A stretch of DNA of 15,844 nucleotides from Promethearchaeota archaeon (lineage in GTDB: Archaea; Asgardarchaeota; Sifarchaeia; Borrarchaeales; Borrarchaeaceae). The number at the start of each line of letters is the position of its first letter. Within the stretch, counting starts at the first letter, position 1. The position numbers and the translations under genes are program-made. The notes below the pieces were generated by a model. It did no database searches, was not told the DNA's origin, and worked only from the letters and a program-made list of their open reading frames with translations. The stretch lies in assembly GCA_048940375.1 (NCBI GenBank), contig JBHLOP010000019.1, positions 1 through 15,844 of the forward strand, given 5' to 3'. Below, piece after piece: positions 306-5,009 of the stretch.

Positions 306-1877
306 TTAACCTAACTGTGCTTTAAGCTCTGCAATCTCCTTCTTCAGGCGTGCAACTAAATCTGAGTGCTTCTCCTCGGAAATTTTTCCATCAAGGAGTA
401 GATCATCTGCTTTTTCTATTCTCTCTTGACGTTCTTTGATCTCCTTTTTAATTTTACCTGCATCAGTAGATGTCGTTGGAACCGTTGATGGACCTGCGAC
501 AGGAACGACACCAGCTCCAGTGACAATTGTTGGTGACGCATCAATTGAGACACCTTTCTTACCTAGTTCGCGATATCCTTCAGCTTTTACAAGTTCTTCA
601 ACGCTTATACCCGCTTCTTTGGCTCTTAAATACAACTCTGTGTCAACACCTTTCATTGTAGCATACTTTTCAGCCTCTATTCTTGCAAGTGCTTCATCTT
701 CAGCAGTTGATGAAAGTGCTTCATATTTTGCTTTCATAGCTTCTAATTCTGCGAGTTTTAACTCCTTTTCTTTTTCAAGCATCGCAAGTTCTGTTTCAGA
801 ACTTATCATTTTCGCCTTGGCAGTTTTTTGTATAACTAATTCTTCGTATTCTTCGGCTCCAGCGATGGTTGCTATTTCAAGTCGCGCTAACTGGACTCCC
901 CAATCGCCAAATGTATTCTCCGCGATTACCTTTGCTTTAGTGGAAATACCTTCGCGATTTGAAAACACATCTTCTAATGGATAGGTGGATACTGTTTGAG
1001 TTACAATTCCTCTCATTGAGTCCTTTGCCCAGTTATCAAACTCATCAGGCGCTAATTTCTCTTTACCACCAATAAAGTTTTGAACAAGGCGTTTAGGGTC
1101 ACTAATTTTGATGTATGCAGTGCCTGAGGCACCGATCTTTACCTTATCTTGTGTATAAATACGTTTAGGAACTCCCCAAGGAATTTTATATTCGCGTGTA
1201 TTTACCCATACGATTTCAGTGCCAATTAGTGCACTGTAGAGTTTTCTTACATCCATTCCGCTGAAGATTTTGTGAATTATTCCTTTAGAATCCTCTTTCC
1301 TCCACGCTTTGTCCAGTTTCCCTGCAGCTTCTAATTCTTGTGCACGTGCTCTTGCTTTTTCTTCAATCTTTCTCTCTTCTTCTGGTATTAAATCATATAC
1401 CCCTGCGCTTAATTCTCCTATCAAAGTTCCCTGTTTATAAAACAATGCTTTTTCATACGATCGTACAACAAATCCTCGAATGGGCTCCTGAAGTCTCGCA
1501 TCATATCCACACTTCTTACAGAAAGCCTGACCTGCTTTTATTGTAGAAACTCGTTCGGTAGGTATATCTGCTCCACATTTTTTACAGAATTTTTGTCCTT
1601 TATTTGCAAGTGTTCCACATTGTGGACATTTCCTTGCTTCTGCTAGTTTTCTACATCCCGGGCAGTGCATATCATAAATTGGCGGAGCATTCATAATATC
1701 TTCATACGTAAGACGATGTATTATTCCAGGATAAACTTGGTGGTTCCAAATGTATGTATATCGATCTCTACCCCATTCTTTTTCAATTACCTCATCAGCG
1801 TCTAATCCTTTGTCTGCTACTCTTTTAAGATCCTTGTCTACTTTTCTAGTTCTAAACCATTCTTTAATCGATGACAT
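306..1877 (-). CDS. Double zinc-ribbon / SPFH (Band 7, YdjI/COG4260-like) / coiled-coil / SHOCT domain protein
   Basis: 523-aa ORF. The ATG at 1877 lies 17 nt after the upstream stop, and the spacer reads AGGAGAGGATGGAGAGA on the coding strand (SD-like). Four CxxC pairs at aa ~72-125 (CPGC..CPQC, FCKKCG twice) form a double zinc ribbon. Aa ~133-345 show the pattern of Band_7_1-type SPFH proteins (ALFYKQG..AGVYDL; EIVWVNTREYKIPWG; GTAYIKISDPKRLV; WGVQLARLEI). Aa ~350-420 are an A/E/K-rich coiled coil, followed by a P/T/G-rich linker. The C-terminal ADDLLLDGKISEEKHSDLVARLKKEI looks SHOCT-like. No TM helix is seen. Confidence 0.8.
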   Translation of the reverse strand: MSSIKEWFRTRKVDKDLKRVADKGLDADEVIEKEWGRDRYTYIWNHQVYPGIIHRLTYEDIMNAPPIYDMHCPGCRKLAEARKCPQCGTLANKGQKFCKKCGADIPTERVSTIKAGQAFCKKCGYDARLQEPIRGFVVRSYEKALFYKQGTLIGELSAGVYDLIPEEERKIEEKARARAQELEAAGKLDKAWRKEDSKGIIHKIFSGMDVRKLYSALIGTEIVWVNTREYKIPWGVPKRIYTQDKVKIGASGTAYIKISDPKRLVQNFIGGKEKLAPDEFDNWAKDSMRGIVTQTVSTYPLEDVFSNREGISTKAKVIAENTFGDWGVQLARLEIATIAGAEEYEELVIQKTAKAKMISSETELAMLEKEKELKLAELEAMKAKYEALSSTAEDEALARIEAEKYATMKGVDTELYLRAKEAGISVEELVKAEGYRELGKKGVSIDASPTIVTGAGVVPVAGPSTVPTTSTDAGKIKKEIKERQERIEKADDLLLDGKISEEKHSDLVARLKKEIAELKAQLG

Positions 1878-1894
1878 TTCTCTCCATCCTCTCC

Positions 1895-3058
1895 TTATCC
1901 TTTATATAGGCTTGGCACATACCAAGCTGTGCCTCCCGCATAACTAGAATCACGTCGGGTAACTCCTTCTTGCTCAAGAGTTTGTAACGCTCGCATTACA
2001 CGTTCATTGTCCCATTGTGTTTTTATCATCAGATCTTCAAGGGAAATATATCCATTTGAGGTTGCAGCCAGCTCAAGTACTGTTCGTGAATCTTCTGTCA
2101 TGCCTACGGGCACAAATTCAACAAGTTTTAAGCCTGAAGGTTTCAATACATGCATATCAGCTATCATTCCAGCTTTATCTAATTTCTTAACTGCTTTTTC
2201 AATATCATTTACATTGAATTCTATGTCTAATCTACGTTCACGCATTTTCATGTAAAGATCTGCTAGCGAACAGATGCCTCCTGTTTCATTTTTGATCATA
2301 TCTTTGAGCTTAAGAATTTCTTCACCAAGTTTCTCATAATAGTCGCCTTTGCCAAAAATTCTTGGCTTTTTCGCTTTTTCGTCTTCCATTGCTTTTCTAA
2401 CTTCTCTGACTTTGCCCTTCTCTCGATGTCTCATTTGCCATAATTTTTCGTCAAGTACTTCCTCGATGTTTTTGTATACGCCATGCCATTTGCCAGGAAC
2501 CCACTGATAGATGTGTTCGGCTTCTGTCACGCCCAACAGCAAATCTTGTCTCTTCTTGAAGAGACTCACAACATCATCCATATCACTTTTTATTTCCCGG
2601 AAGAACTTCTTTCCGTCTTCTGCATTTCCATCTTCTACCTTTGGAAGTACCGTTTCTCGTAATATTTCGTTCATTGCATCGATTTCAAATAAAGTAAGCA
2701 TATCTATTCCTACAAGATTTTTGAACATATCGGACTCCAACGTTACATCAAATTTTGTTGGGCCTCCAGCAGTTTTACTTTGTTTATGAAGTTTTTCGAC
2801 CTCAAAAATGGGAGCCATCAACTCAACGTCTTGTTGAAATCTGTTCAATTTCTTTCTTAATCTTTCGCCTAACTTTAATACATCATCATTACCTAAGTCT
2901 ACTGAAGCTTTCTGGATCTCTCCTAATAGCTCATCTGAGCTTTTTAAACTATTTAACATCTTTTCTTTTAAGACGCGATCATAGTTTTCTCGCATCTCCT
3001 TCCTCCAGCCAGGCTTAATCCATTTGAAATAATTCTTAATTTTTCTAAGCCTTTCCAT
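1895..3058 (-). CDS. ESCRT-II Vps22/SNF8 (EAP30 family)-like tandem winged-helix protein with a long N-terminal helical extension
   Basis: 387-aa ORF. The ATG at 3058 has AAGGAG 8 nt upstream (rc of 3059-3090). Aa 236-385 align by eye along the whole C-terminal half of human SNF8 as I recall it: GKGDYYEKLGEEILKL..ETGGICSLADLY vs GDFYYELGVQIIEVC..NGGLITLEEL; NDIEKAVKKLDKAG vs DDLIRAIKKLKALG; NGYISLEDLMIKTQWDNERVMRALQTLEQEGV..WYVPSLY vs NGYVTVSEIKASLKWETERARQVLEHLLKEGL..YWLPALF. Aa 1-235 are helical and charged with no family I recognise. Confidence 0.8.
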   Translation of the reverse strand: MERLRKIKNYFKWIKPGWRKEMRENYDRVLKEKMLNSLKSSDELLGEIQKASVDLGNDDVLKLGERLRKKLNRFQQDVELMAPIFEVEKLHKQSKTAGGPTKFDVTLESDMFKNLVGIDMLTLFEIDAMNEILRETVLPKVEDGNAEDGKKFFREIKSDMDDVVSLFKKRQDLLLGVTEAEHIYQWVPGKWHGVYKNIEEVLDEKLWQMRHREKGKVREVRKAMEDEKAKKPRIFGKGDYYEKLGEEILKLKDMIKNETGGICSLADLYMKMRERRLDIEFNVNDIEKAVKKLDKAGMIADMHVLKPSGLKLVEFVPVGMTEDSRTVLELAATSNGYISLEDLMIKTQWDNERVMRALQTLEQEGVTRRDSSYAGGTAWYVPSLYKG

Positions 3059-3090
3059 AGGTCACACTCCTTTCTTTCATTTTTTTTAAT

Positions 3091-4575
3091 TTAAACCGAC
3101 TTTTGTCTTTCAAGTTTCATACTTAATGTGCTTCCACAAGTTGGACACTTGAATTTCTCAGGCCCTACCCAATCCACGCTTTCCTCGCTCAAAGGCGCAC
3201 CACATTCTGAACATGTGGTGGGAACGGTCTTTATTAGTATTACTTCTTCTTTCTTCTCGATAACTCTCTCCTTAATGATCATCTCAGTTGGCTTGGAATT
3301 ATTCCCTTCGGAAACTGCAGCGGCTGTAACTGGATCTACGATATCCATATATGCTCTACCAATCTCAATAGTAAGTGGCTCGCTGTAAATAGCAAGTTTT
3401 TGAGATTTAAAGATTTTCGGGGCATTAAAAAGAATCTCAGTAGGATTCAAGGAATATAATCCACCAATTGTTGGTGTAACTTTAAAATCAACAGCTCTAT
3501 ACGTTCCAGGACGAATTCTTTCTATGTGCTTCCCATTACCATTTCCCACTTCAAATTCAGACGGGAAATCTGTTTTGACCTCAATATTAGTAACTTCAAA
3601 ATCAGATTTATTACGAATATCTACCGAAATAAGCCCTTCGTGGTCAATATATAACGCCTTAGCTTCTCTATCTATCTCAATGTTAGGTAGAACGAACACA
3701 GGTGTAAGATTAACATCAGTAGATGTTGGTTGAAAATTCCCTGCAGTTATAGTTGCTTGTGCACGCATCGCAAACACACCAACTTCACCTGTTGGCAGCT
3801 CTAATTCTATCTCTTCAGTTTCATCTTTCCTTAATGAAACTGAAATATCTTCATTCAAAACAGGGAAGTGCAATTTCAACTCAGTAGGTAGTTTTGCTGT
3901 GATAGTCAATGTGAGCGGAATCTGATTACCGATTTTGACAGCTTCAACAGTTTCAACATTTATACTTGGCAAGACTCTCAAAATTGGGATCCCCATACGA
4001 TTGCATACCGGGCAACCGGTATTCACAAGATTTCTGTTGCATAATACTGGATGGGCTCCAGTTTGAATCAACTTCTTCTTATTCAGTTGATTGAAGATGT
4101 CGGCTAGGTTATCTTCAACGATTTTTGGTTTTGATTTTGAAGATTCCCACCCACAAGCTACACAAGTAACTTTATAATCAGGAGCAGCTGAATCAAAGAC
4201 GCCTCCTTTTTGAAATTGCGTGAGAACCAATTGCTTTCCACATTGGGGACACAATGAGTTTAATATAGTCTGACATTTAGCATTAGGTGGCGCTGATTGA
4301 AATCCTACCCCACAGGATGGACAGAATGAAATTTTTTTCGATGCACAATGTTTGCAAAACACGCCGTGTTCAGGACAGTAAAAATTAGCGAATTTACCGC
4401 AGTGTACACAAATATAATTTGCTAATTTTTCTTTTTTCTTTCCTTCTTCAATAAGTAGCATTGAAGCCCTTGTTGTTGGAGTTGGTTTAGAGAGAGAAAA
4501 TAGTGGTGAACCACAAAAAGTACAGAATCTTAGACCTTCTCTTAGTGTTCTTCTGCATCTAGGACATGCCGGCAA
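3091..4575 (-). CDS. Cytoplasmic multi-zinc-ribbon protein with B-box/RING-like 8-ligand module and central tandem beta-sandwich region
   Basis: 494-aa ORF. The start is TTG at 4575, with GGAGG (rc of 4585-4589) 9 nt upstream. There is no signal peptide or TM helix. Zinc modules: C4/C7/C18/C21; C56-x2-C59-x7-C67-x2-H70-x3-C74-x2-C77-x7-C85-x2-C88; C109/C112/C138/C141; H175?/C179/C188/C191; C455/C458/C477/C480. Aa ~200-410 are beta-strand-rich with alternating polar and hydrophobic residues (e.g. ISVDIRNKSDFEVTNIEVKTDFP..RPGTYRAVDFKVTP), resembling Ig-like/CARDB-type sandwiches. Confidence 0.75.
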   Translation of the reverse strand: MPACPRCRRTLREGLRFCTFCGSPLFSLSKPTPTTRASMLLIEEGKKKEKLANYICVHCGKFANFYCPEHGVFCKHCASKKISFCPSCGVGFQSAPPNAKCQTILNSLCPQCGKQLVLTQFQKGGVFDSAAPDYKVTCVACGWESSKSKPKIVEDNLADIFNQLNKKKLIQTGAHPVLCNRNLVNTGCPVCNRMGIPILRVLPSINVETVEAVKIGNQIPLTLTITAKLPTELKLHFPVLNEDISVSLRKDETEEIELELPTGEVGVFAMRAQATITAGNFQPTSTDVNLTPVFVLPNIEIDREAKALYIDHEGLISVDIRNKSDFEVTNIEVKTDFPSEFEVGNGNGKHIERIRPGTYRAVDFKVTPTIGGLYSLNPTEILFNAPKIFKSQKLAIYSEPLTIEIGRAYMDIVDPVTAAAVSEGNNSKPTEMIIKERVIEKKEEVILIKTVPTTCSECGAPLSEESVDWVGPEKFKCPTCGSTLSMKLERQKSV

Positions 4576-4615
4576 TTTTCTAGTCCTCCAGTTTTTTCCG
4601 ATGATTTTTTAGTTT

Positions 4616-4637
4616 TAGTACCACAATAGTGGTACTA
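4616..4637. promoter_or_regulatory. Perfect 9-4-9 palindrome, candidate operator for the minus-strand operon
   Basis: TAGTACCAC-AATA-GTGGTACTA: arms 4616-4624 and 4629-4637 are exact reverse complements. The palindrome lies 40 nt upstream of the TTG start at 4575 and begins 25 nt downstream of the minus-strand TATA element (4670->4663). It would therefore sit at or just after the expected transcription start. Confidence 0.45.
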
Positions 4638-4662
4638 CACATATACTACTACTACATGGCGG

Positions 4663-4670
4663 TATTTAAA
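4663..4670 (-). promoter_or_regulatory. Archaeal TATA-box candidate (TTTAAATA on minus strand) for the three-gene operon
   Basis: The minus-strand sequence reads ..CTCAAAATTTTTAAATACCGCC... TTTAAATA matches the archaeal TTTAWATA consensus, with an A-rich BRE-like stretch upstream. The position fits a TSS near 4640 and a 5' UTR of about 65 nt carrying the SD. Confidence 0.4.
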
Positions 4671-5009
4671 AATTTTGAGAAAACTCTCCGCATTTCAATT
4701 ATAATTGTTTCAATCAAGCGAAAAACATGTCCTGGTGAATATTTAGAATGTTACATTTATCACAAAGGTTTTTATTTTACATTAGTTAATTTGCGACAAA
4801 TAACTTAATGTTGGATTGCTTAACTGCCGAAATTATATCGATTTATTGACAGATGCGCTTTCATCTTCAGAATTATCTAGTCAATTAGCTCGAAAAAGTC
4901 TTTTCCAAAATTTTAGATATTTATGTCGGACGCAACATTTCTATAGGAGTTATTCAACTCTTAAAATTAGAACTACTATAAAATCAGATATAAAAGAAAA
5001 TTTGGAGAT

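Follow-up and report, generated by a model that had tools for sequence, protein, structure and literature searches.

Does a Vps22-like (ESCRT-II) gene that lies beside SPFH and zinc-ribbon genes, rather than beside its usual ESCRT partners, still take part in membrane remodelling, and in what form? The question is raised by a 15,844-nt stretch of DNA (the window), which is an entire contig of Candidatus Borrarchaeum, an uncultured Asgard archaeon. A sequence-only reading of this stretch had described a three-gene minus-strand operon with a divergent giant membrane gene beside it. The operon was said to encode a multi-zinc-finger beta-sandwich protein, a protein resembling SNF8/Vps22 over ~150 aa and a YdjI-type SPFH/SHOCT protein. 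That reading had also held that no canonical ESCRT partner is present in the window, and it had not recognised the gene combination as a described system.

The operon layout was borne out by the open reading frames and motifs (Table 1). Gaps of 32 nt (genes 1/2) and 17 nt (genes 2/3) separate the three genes, each of which has a GGAG-type SD motif, and the trio has a TATA-like box and an oligo-T region in common. The start codon of gene 1 is TTG, and the TM scan found no transmembrane segment in any of the three products. Because every gene has its own SD motif, the gaps are short (17-47 nt across relatives) and there is a single TATA box and terminator, co-transcription can be argued. We regard the trio as a real, lineage-specific and probably co-transcribed module. 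The oligo-T tracts are a candidate archaeal terminator. The inverted repeat, whose arms are kept and whose 4-nt spacer varies among the four Borrarchaeum genomes compared, may be an operator at the transcription start or a 5'-UTR hairpin.

Table 1. Features of the Borrarchaeum locus, with positions in the window.
Feature	Residues or motif	Position (nt)	Strand	Remark
Gene 1, soluble zinc-ribbon/Ig-like protein	494 aa	3091-4575	minus	
Gene 1, ~5 N-terminal CxxC zinc ribbons	aa 4-191			
Gene 1, two tandem Ig-like beta-sandwich domains	aa ~210-305 and 312-405	3361-3948	minus	
Gene 1, C-terminal zinc ribbon	aa 455-480			
Gene 2, Vps22-like protein	387 aa	1895-3058	minus	
Gene 2, N-terminal helical extension	aa 1-188	2495-3058	minus	lineage-specific
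Gene 2, Vps22/EAP30-homologous region	aa 189-387	1898-2494	minus	tandem winged-helix domains
Gene 3, TM-less zinc-ribbon SPFH protein	523 aa	306-1877	minus	
Gene 3, unique N-terminal region	aa 1-70			
Gene 3, two zinc ribbons (four CxxC pairs)	aa 72-123	1509-1664	minus	
Gene 3, SPFH domain	aa 137-371	765-1469	minus	
Gene 3, E/K/A/L-rich helix (coiled coil)	aa ~372-440			then A/P/T/V-rich linker, short C-terminal helix
Polytopic membrane protein	989 aa	5010-7979	plus	divergently transcribed
SD-like motif, gene 1	GGAGG	4585-4589	minus	
SD-like motif, gene 2	AAGGAG	inside 32-nt gap	minus	
SD-like motif, gene 3	GGAGAGGATGGAGAG	inside 17-nt gap	minus	
TATA-like box, operon	TTTAAATA	4663-4670	minus	identical in four Borrarchaeum genomes
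Perfect 9-bp inverted repeat	TAGTACCAC-N4-GTGGTACTA	4616-4637	minus	begins 26 nt downstream of TATA box
Oligo-T tracts x3	T7, T7, T6	211-238	minus	~70-95 nt past gene 3 stop codon

The gene 2 product is a true, divergent Vps22/EAP30 homologue. The Pfam EAP30 profile (PF04157; gathering cut-off 26.8 bits) matched aa 228-370 with 59.4 bits (E = 5.4e-16; profile positions 79-218/219). In phmmer searches of the PDB, only SNF8/Vps22 chains were matched, namely human SNF8 (3cuq_A, E = 5.4e-16 over aa 233-385, the extent of similarity previously described) and yeast Vps22 (E = 8.8e-6). Foldseek gave human EAP30 as the best fold match (1.7e-8), followed by yeast Vps22 (1.3e-5), Vps36 (1.4e-5) and Vps25 (1.8e-2); by these E-values and by phmmer, Vps36 and Vps25 are both more distant from gene 2 than Vps22 is. 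BLASTP identity was 40% with the Jordarchaeia Vps22 and 30% with the lokiarchaeial Vps22 (across aa 189-384), while the Jord and Loki orthologues are 44% identical to each other. Asp370 (nt 1949-1951), invariant in the alignment, aligns with Asp214 of yeast Vps22, and yeast D214 forms a salt bridge with Vps25 R83 (PMC539351).

Homology to Vps22 is confined to aa 189-387. Whereas the EAP30 profile aligns with canonical Jord and Loki Vps22 over positions 2-215, its match to gene 2 starts at position 79. The BLASTP alignment extends back to canonical residue 46 and no further, and the canonical N-terminus (MGIRE..., common to Jord and Loki) is not alignable. The canonical N-terminus (profile positions 1-78) is replaced in gene 2 by a unique helical extension of ~188-190 aa. 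This extension is 81-92% conserved within the genus Borrarchaeum and opens with a basic aromatic amphipathic segment (net charge +6 in aa 1-30; muH 0.72 in aa 7-20). A phmmer search with aa 1-232 against 1.84 billion representatives recovered its own cluster alone, and Pfam gave no match to the extension at E <= 0.05. The hhalign probability was 0.15% against canonical Vps22 and below 1% against the SB-containing Vps28 and UEV-Vps23. AF2 predicts the extension as all-helical at low pLDDT, with an N-terminal amphipathic helix followed by putative hairpins at aa 20-54/57-84 and aa 110-142/147-175, in models that are poor (pLDDT 52-54).

Gene 3 encodes the expected SPFH protein, which matched Band_7 (63.3 bits, 3.9e-17; cut-off 23.6), Band_7_1 (45.6 bits, 8.5e-12; cut-off 24) and Zn_ribbon families. 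Its designation as YdjI-type holds in so far as Band_7_1 is above the cut-off, but the generic Band_7 scores 18 bits higher. Stomatin was its single PDB sequence match (2e-3). Stomatin, HflK/C and FloA/T are anchored by an N-terminal TM helix or hairpin, whereas gene 3 has no TM segment (maximum 19-residue Kyte-Doolittle average 1.31); it shares with cage-forming SPFH proteins a long post-SPFH helix. The SHOCT domain (PF09851) attributed to it was not detected at E <= 10, either in the C-terminal 166 aa or in the last 47 aa alone. At the motif level only, the C-terminus resembles SHOCT (DLLLDGKISEE). The dN/dS of gene 3 is 0.066.

Gene 1 (dN/dS 0.105) is a multi-zinc-finger beta-sandwich protein, as had been read from the sequence: it matched Pfam DZR (1.4e-09) and weakly TRAP_beta/NEW3, CxxC occurs 10 times in its sequence, and the TM scan gave no segment. 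The AF2 model reaches pLDDT 60-84 in the beta domains, and transglutaminase C-terminal barrels and CEP192 SPD-2/ASH domains lead its Foldseek PDB matches, so far as the model goes suggesting generic Ig-like folds. Adaptin/COPI was absent from the top 50 Foldseek PDB matches of this model of moderate confidence, the model had no TBP/platform (alpha/beta) domain, at the same moderate confidence, and there was no Alpha_adaptinC2 Pfam match.

Some 16 hydrophobic segments were counted in the divergent membrane protein, which also carries a Trp-rich soluble domain and, at the C-terminus, a CxxC...CxxC zinc ribbon; Pfam and NCBIfam gave no family for it. No other protein of the neighbourhood is as well conserved (89-94% identity in relatives; dN/dS 0.079), and the gene for it adjoins the trio divergently in every relative examined. 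Linked to the operon by adjacency, this protein might anchor the soluble operon products to the membrane. On the other side, left of position 1, relatives encode S19e, L31e and eIF6. As the trio always lies between the gene for the 989-aa protein and ribosomal protein genes, it does not mark the border of a canonical ESCRT/ubiquitin cluster. The stated lack of ESCRT partners was confirmed by the Pfam search of the window's ORFs, which yielded no Vps25, Vps28, Vps23, ESCRT-III, Vps4 or ubiquitin gene and no PspA_IM30 or Snf7 match. In relatives, the 10 kb to the left and to the right of the EAP30 gene likewise contain no Vps25, Vps28, Vps23, ESCRT-III, Vps4 or ubiquitin gene.

The trio and its spacing are kept in at least five Borrarchaeum genomes, in which synonymous divergence is near saturation (dS 0.7-1.7), and purifying selection acts on all of the genes (dN/dS 0.07-0.10). 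Conservation of the trio had been proposed as a check across Asgard and other archaea; it was found within Borrarchaeum, but no similar trio appeared in other Asgard or archaeal genomes among the matches listed (from narrow scans of word-index candidates and of peptide patterns). Among these matches the trio is restricted to the genus. Since the whole 20-kb neighbourhood, with its metabolic and ribosomal protein genes, is syntenic within this single genus, gene-order conservation is inseparable from shared descent and is weak evidence of functional linkage.

The gene combination, not recognised in the sequence-only reading, has a counterpart in the literature. Makarova et al. (2024) reported archaeal 'Meth_adaptin' ESCRT loci with proteins of the ZnR-SPFH-CC type and of the ZnR/Ig "adaptin-like" type, and pointed to the parallel with YdjI-PspA (PMC10936438). 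In the Methanosalsum zhilinae type, as in the Borrarchaeum locus, an ESCRT-related component is found together with a ZnR-SPFH-CC protein and a ZnR/Ig protein, and the Methanosalsum-type ZnR-SPFH-CC protein (WP_013898576.1) and gene 3 are alike at the level of architecture. However, the Meth_adaptin loci contain Vps4, ESCRT-III, GOLD and ProX, none of which is in the Borrarchaeum locus, where the sole ESCRT component is the ESCRT-II-type Vps22; moreover, the adaptin appendage of their Ig proteins includes its TBP/platform half, which the gene 1 model lacks.

In Bacillus subtilis, YdjI recruits PspA and depends on YdjG/H for its own membrane localisation (PMC8581546), essentially as the sequence-only reading had stated. 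The pspA-ydjGHI operon and the Borrarchaeum locus have in common an anchorless SPFH protein with a zinc finger, candidate membrane partners and an ESCRT-superfamily-related protein encoded in the same operon. That protein is PspA/ESCRT-III in B. subtilis but an ESCRT-II-like winged helix in Borrarchaeum, which, as the sequence-only reading proposed, may serve as an adaptor where B. subtilis has PspA. The zinc ribbons are C-terminal in YdjI and N-terminal in gene 3, and the polytopic Borrarchaeum protein is encoded on the opposite strand, and no relationship between it and either YdjG or YdjH could be detected. Canonical Asgard Vps22 (PF04157; asCOG cog.002769) is ~242-244 aa long, compared with the 387 aa of gene 2, which shares the tandem winged-helix core and the D214-equivalent Asp of Asgard and eukaryotic Vps22 (EAP30/SNF8). 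The canonical Jord/Loki gene adjoins Vps25, Vps28, Vps23 or Vps4, whereas gene 2 adjoins SPFH and ZnF/Ig genes. Eukaryotic Vps36 is likewise a divergent Vps22 paralogue-type protein with an added N-terminal module and a zinc-finger-rich context; gene 2, however, lacks its GLUE/PH domain, and the zinc fingers, inserted in Vps36 itself, are located on neighbouring proteins in Borrarchaeum.

We tentatively favour, at a confidence just short of even, the reading of the locus as a Borrarchaeum-specific operon for a membrane-associated complex around a specialised Vps22 (ESCRT-II) family protein. The operon anatomy, the Vps22 membership of gene 2 and the precedents in other loci speak for it, while confinement to one syntenic genus, the lack of nearby ESCRT-III, Vps4 or Vps25 genes, the poor AF2 models, the generic Ig-like domains and the familyless membrane protein weigh against it. 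Gene 2 might instead be the only, orthologous Vps22 of Borrarchaeum, drifted from the ESCRT genes and N-terminally extended, acting in the ordinary Asgard ubiquitin-ESCRT pathway, with its SPFH and ZnF neighbours being co-expressed accessory or upstream factors or unrelated. We consider this unlikely, though it deserves serious weight. Hatano et al. found one Vps22/36-like gene per Asgard genome (PMC9192718), and there is one EAP30 locus per Borrarchaeum genome among the matches listed, although these loci were scanned for with two narrow peptide patterns, which a second copy could escape. The winged-helix region is nearly as close to Jordarchaeial Vps22 as the Jord and Loki orthologues are to each other, and it keeps the Vps25-contact Asp, but the canonical N-terminus is missing from the alignment and the EAP30 profile covers positions 79-218 only. 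Heimdall AB_125 (Makarova Table S2) bears on both sides: it has orphan Vps22 genes outside ESCRT clusters, in favour of this account, but its two Vps22-family genes also demonstrate that paralogues exist.

That the adjacency is functionally meaningless appears rather improbable; the tandem winged-helix protein would then have a non-ESCRT role (in regulation or in binding nucleic acids, for instance), the SPFH and ZnF proteins would each work on their own, and gene order would reflect recent descent. The metabolic and ribosomal protein genes are equally syntenic in all relatives, and co-occurrence outside the one genus was not found among the matches listed. Against this stand the operon signals and tight spacing, as well as the independent ESCRT-SPFH-ZnR/Ig association in Methanosalsum-type loci. 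The tandem winged helices do match Pol III RPC34/TFIIIC, but weakly (4e-3 to 7e-3, Foldseek); the EAP30 fold match beats that to any DNA-binding winged-helix protein by five orders of magnitude, and the homology is evident at the sequence level. It is far harder to credit that the N-terminal extension is a polymerising ESCRT-III/PspA-like or steadiness-box-like hairpin fused to winged helices in the reverse of the CdvB order, making the operon a self-contained SPFH plus ESCRT-III-like system analogous to PspA-YdjGHI. The two long helical hairpins behind an amphipathic helix in the AF2 model would fit this, CdvB (ESCRT-III then wH) and SB-Asgard Vps22 fusions are on record (PMC10936438), and YdjI-PspA is a precedent, but the confidence of the model is too low for reliance. 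The extension had no Snf7 or PspA Pfam match even at E <= 10 and no relatives besides its own cluster, its charge pattern is unlike ESCRT-III, and ESCRT-III and PspA structures were absent from the top 50 Foldseek matches; the hhalign comparisons with the SB-containing proteins point the same way.

If the operon does serve a complex around a specialised Vps22, its SPFH protein may assemble into a cup-shaped oligomer at the cytoplasmic side of the membrane; SPFH-like baskets have been seen in an Asgard cell by cryo-ET (bioRxiv 10.1101/2025.11.06.686947). It would be recruited there by partners, the best candidate being the zinc-ribbon-tailed 989-aa membrane protein, possibly with help from the amphipathic N-terminus of the gene 2 product. 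The gene 1 protein could be a cargo or partner adaptor, perhaps comparable with the zinc fingers of Vps36 or with the zinc-ribbon Ig/'adaptin-like' proteins found in euryarchaeal ESCRT loci. Vps4 is encoded in Borrarchaeota (Makarova Table S1), which also have a UEV-Vps23/ubiquitin cluster (bioRxiv 10.1101/2023.07.25.550441), so ESCRT machinery is present at other sites in the genome. The winged-helix module would connect the platform to a putative Vps25, ESCRT-III and Vps4 encoded there, so that the module may be functionally coupled to ESCRT-III. In Asgard archaea a Vps22 homodimer does without Vps36 (PMC9192718), and the connection could be made by a homodimer or by a heterodimer with a putative canonical Vps22, in which gene 2 would be a Vps36-like specialised subunit.

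The likely role of such a complex would be local membrane repair, remodelling or sorting. ESCRT-II variants in Asgard archaea are patchy and lineage-specific (PMC10936438). A link between ESCRT and SPFH proteins has already been noted in other archaea, and the Borrarchaeum locus is a local form of it, not a new kind of system; what is new here is a divergent Vps22 in a genus-restricted operon with SPFH and ZnF/Ig-like genes.

The window spans one entire 15,844-bp contig of an NCBI MAG labelled Promethearchaeota archaeon. Among the matches listed, the genomes closest to the contig are those of Candidatus Borrarchaeum weybense, B. yapensis and one Borrarchaeota MAG, which NCBI taxonomy places in the Asgard kingdom, phylum Borrarchaeota. 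The operon under study (the triad) encodes a zinc-finger/Ig protein (gene 1), a Vps22-like protein (gene 2) and an SPFH protein (gene 3). The genes are separated by 32 nt (gene 1/gene 2) and 17 nt (gene 2/gene 3), and a GGAG-type motif lies 4-10 nt 5' of every start. The open reading frames, both gaps, these motifs, the TATA-like box and the oligo-T tracts described in the sequence-only reading were all seen, and its sequence-level observation is therefore correct. A scan with bacterial promoter and terminator models, which are not applicable to archaea, gave matches at chance level only.

Features of the triad operon (window positions, forward-strand numbering)
Feature	Positions	Strand	Description
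Gene 1 (zinc-finger/Ig)	3091-4575	minus	494 aa, TTG start
Gene 2 (Vps22-like)	1895-3058	minus	387 aa
Gene 3 (SPFH)	306-1877	minus	523 aa
SD-like motif of gene 1	4585-4589		GGAGG
SD-like motif in the first gap (gene 1/gene 2)			AAGGAG
SD-like motif in the second gap (gene 2/gene 3)			GGAGAGGATGGAGAG
TATA-like box	4663-4670		TTTAAATA
Oligo-T tracts (n = 3)	211-238

Residues 228-370 of the gene 2 product matched Pfam EAP30 (5.4e-16, 59.4 bits, cut-off 26.8), and phmmer against the PDB recovered human SNF8 (3cuq_A, 5.4e-16, aa 233-385) and yeast Vps22 (8.8e-6), with no meaningful match beyond SNF8/Vps22; the EAP30/Vps22 homology claimed from the sequence is thus borne out. Mean pLDDT is low in the AF2 models of both gene 1 (54) and gene 2 (52) because their alignments hold 8 near-identical sequences. 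In the gene 2 model the C-terminal half forms two winged helices, and Foldseek placed human EAP30 (1.7e-8) ahead of yeast Vps22, Vps36 and Vps25. Gene 2 covers only positions 79-218 of the 219 in the EAP30 profile; the canonical Jordarchaeial and Lokiarchaeial Vps22 proteins (242-244 aa) match all of it. These two are 44% identical over their full length and have the N-terminus MGIRE in common; the gene for the former adjoins UEV-Vps23 and Vps28, and that for the latter Vps25 and Vps4. By BLASTP, gene 2 is 40% identical to the Jordarchaeial protein over aa 241-384 and 30% identical to the Lokiarchaeial one over aa 189-384 (canonical residues 46-237). Asp370 of gene 2, within the most conserved motif common to it and canonical Asgard Vps22, aligns with yeast Vps22 Asp214, which forms a salt bridge with Vps25 Arg83 (PMC539351). 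On the strength of these matches and the canonical comparison, therefore, the gene 2 product is a genuine member of the Vps22 family whose canonical N-terminus has been replaced by an extension of ~188 aa.

AF2 predicts this extension to be all-helical. It had no match in Pfam, and in hhalign comparisons with canonical Vps22, Vps28 and UEV-Vps23 its profile resembled none of them. Against 1.84 billion representative proteins, phmmer returned its own cluster only and one spurious match, a 2040-aa protein that was rejected as a homologue (six short matched stretches, E = 1.4e-4). Residues 1-30 of gene 2 carry a net charge of +6 together with Tyr, Phe and Trp, and the hydrophobic moment of residues 7-20 is among the highest in the protein. 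This composition suggests that the N-terminal start may be a membrane-binding amphipathic helix.

In gene 3, aa 137-371 matched Band_7 (3.9e-17) and Band_7_1 (8.5e-12), four CxxC pairs at aa 72-123 make up two zinc ribbons, and a helix rich in E, K, A and L comes after the SPFH domain. The SHOCT domain assigned to this protein from the sequence did not materialize, as its C-terminus gave no such match at any threshold tried. Gene 1 contains ten CxxC motifs, and its AF2 model has tandem all-beta domains at aa ~210-305 and 312-405 (pLDDT 60-84). Its top structural matches were generic Ig-like pairs (transglutaminase C-terminal barrels, CEP192/ASH domains), and neither adaptin nor COPI was among the best of them. 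No transmembrane segment was found in either product. The divergently transcribed 989-aa protein adjoining the triad (5010-7979, plus strand) has ~16 hydrophobic segments together with a soluble domain rich in Trp and, at the C-terminus, a zinc ribbon. It matched no Pfam or NCBIfam family and, at 89-94% identity, is conserved more strongly than any other protein of the neighbourhood.

Homologues were sought in a 5.8-billion-protein collection, GTDB species genomes and JGI metagenomes, the genome collections being scanned with narrow peptide patterns. Among the matches listed, triad homologues occurred in one narrow clade only, at identities of at least 75-85%. Word-index searches with each triad protein returned relatives at 75% identity or above and two canonical Vps22 proteins, nothing else; the genome and metagenome scans, among the matches listed, returned only Borrarchaeum loci or the canonical Jordarchaeial and Lokiarchaeial Vps22 loci. 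No triad homologue was found in viral contigs. A reading of the locus as a defence system was discarded, PADLOC giving no meaningful match.

Gene order is identical in every relative whose flanks extend far enough; the triad is co-located in these genomes, inside a wholly syntenic neighbourhood. The order runs metallophosphoesterase, 2-phosphoglycerate kinase, cyclic-2,3-diphosphoglycerate (cDPG)-synthetase-like, (GDPD) and ~985-aa membrane protein, then, divergently, zinc-finger, Vps22-like and SPFH, followed by S19e, L31e, eIF6, LX and prefoldin; gaps within the triad are 17-47 nt. In the comparison of the window with its most distant relative (L002), dS is 0.7-1.7, close to saturation, and the dN/dS of the triad (0.066-0.105) and of the membrane protein (0.079) resembles that of the metabolic neighbours. 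With dN/dS low despite such dS, the triad and membrane-protein genes are therefore real and constrained. The conservation of the triad is inseparable from that of the whole neighbourhood. Because ribosomal protein genes flank it in relatives, in the region left of position 1 where the edge of a canonical ESCRT/ubiquitin cluster might have lain, such an edge is ruled out. Elsewhere in the genome, Borrarchaeota have Vps4 (Makarova et al. Table S1, PMC10936438) and a UEV-Vps23/ubiquitin/JAB cluster (bioRxiv 10.1101/2023.07.25.550441).

Window and L002 share 73% identity across the whole divergent intergenic region (4576-5009), against a pS of 0.45-0.67 at synonymous sites of the flanking genes, so the region holds several conserved blocks; no Rfam family and no tRNA was detected in it. 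The TATA box of the triad operon is invariant in four Borrarchaeum genomes. A perfect 9-bp inverted repeat, TAGTACCAC-N4-GTGGTACTA, lies at 4616-4637, beginning 26 nt downstream of the TATA box. Its arms are kept in four Borrarchaeum genomes, the 4-nt spacer being variable; a C>T change in one arm, present in a single genome, would leave a G-U pair in RNA. The repeat may act as a repressor operator where transcription starts or form a 5'-UTR hairpin.

Several other genes were recorded. The adjacent pair at 8932-11218 encodes the cDPG-synthetase-like protein (CpgS_N in relatives) and the 2-phosphoglycerate kinase (NCBIfam PRK04220, 1.2e-94, 317.2 bits, just under the 343-bit curated cut-off). 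As the cDPG pathway is chiefly known from hyperthermophilic methanogens, finding its genes in an Asgard MAG is unexpected. The 511-aa protein at 11250-12785 contains two calcineurin-like metallophosphoesterase domains, both complete and arranged in tandem. A 510-aa ORF at 12825-14357, whose Phosphodiest/alkaline-phosphatase-like match is weak, shares 53 nt with the DUF711 gene; its B. weybense homologue was called at 467 aa, so the true start is probably an internal Met ~45 codons downstream. In the B. weybense locus (L004), ~7 kb past the SPFH gene, a 1336-aa helicase-Cas1 fusion (DEAD/ResIII/Helicase_C and Cas_Cas1) was called at 21318-21488, running off the locus. A canonical Asgard ESCRT-I/II cluster in another locus (UEV-Vps23, Vps28 and Vps22; L001, 6920-10735) adjoins genes for an Arf/Ras-like small GTPase and a zinc-ribbon protein.

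The triad fits the logic of several ESCRT/SPFH/PspA systems yet is a member of none. TM-less YdjI depends on the membrane proteins YdjG and YdjH for membrane arrival and PspA recruitment (Scholz et al. 2021, PMC8581546). The triad contains no PspA/ESCRT-III, and gene 3 gave no match to the SHOCT domain proposed for it. The 'Meth_adaptin' ESCRT loci combine Vps4, ESCRT-III, an SPFH protein with coiled coil and zinc ribbon, GOLD, ProX and two 'adaptin-appendage' proteins of Ig+TBP type, of which one bears a zinc ribbon (Makarova et al. 2024, PMC10936438). In contrast, the triad has no Vps4, ESCRT-III or TBP-platform domain, and its ESCRT component is of the ESCRT-II type. Asgard Vps22 homodimerises in the place of Vps36 (Hatano et al. 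2022, PMC9192718), and SPFH-like baskets were observed on the inner membrane face of an Asgard cell (bioRxiv 10.1101/2025.11.06.686947). The locus represents a new variant, confined to one genus among the matches listed, of the recognised ESCRT + ZnR-SPFH + ZnR/Ig theme and of lineage-specific Asgard ESCRT-II diversification. Of the sequence-only interpretation, the operon, the Vps22 homology and the separation from an ESCRT cluster edge stand; the SHOCT domain does not, nor does the novelty of the combination, since its context is already published (PMC10936438).

We tentatively regard the triad as a membrane-assembled module that links an SPFH platform to ESCRT through the Vps22-like protein, a reading to which we give a little less than an even chance. 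The operon products would be soluble and assemble at the membrane, where the SPFH protein would probably form an oligomeric cup. Attachment would be through the conserved polytopic zinc-ribbon membrane protein, possibly aided by the Vps22-like protein through its amphipathic N-terminus. The zinc-finger/Ig protein would act as an adaptor, and the winged helices of the Vps22-like protein would engage Vps25 and ESCRT-III, presumably encoded elsewhere.

It is also conceivable, if somewhat unlikely, that gene 2 is the lineage's only Vps22 plus an added domain and nothing more. Fairly improbable is an adjacency of the three genes that carries no functional meaning. We consider it distinctly improbable that a second, Vps36-like ESCRT-II subunit arose independently in Borrarchaeum, as a Vps22 paralogue whose new N-terminal module would, along with zinc-finger partners and an SPFH cage, target ESCRT-II/III to a specific membrane platform. 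In a more extreme form of this reading, the extension would itself polymerise, as an ESCRT-III/PspA-like hairpin joined to the winged helices. That the extension is itself ESCRT-III/PspA-like is very improbable, as neither sequence nor fold evidence supports it, although the model behind the fold comparison is poor.

The impact is limited by the restriction of the module to one uncultured genus and by earlier publications, which already cover the general contextual ESCRT-SPFH link and the patchiness of ESCRT-II diversity in Asgard archaea. Vps36 is thought to have arisen when a Vps22 duplicate or variant gained an N-terminal targeting module. If the Vps36-like reading were true, this would be the first case in nature of an SPFH microdomain scaffold hard-wired to ESCRT-II instead of ESCRT-III/PspA. 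If the triad proteins cooperate, they would show how a Vps22 duplicate or variant gains such a module. They would also provide an Asgard case in which an ESCRT-II-type adaptor is coupled to an SPFH scaffold, joining two separately documented links, bacterial SPFH-PspA/ESCRT-III and the euryarchaeal SPFH-ESCRT loci, and a compact, expressible soluble set for early-ESCRT membrane targeting in the closest archaeal relatives of eukaryotes.
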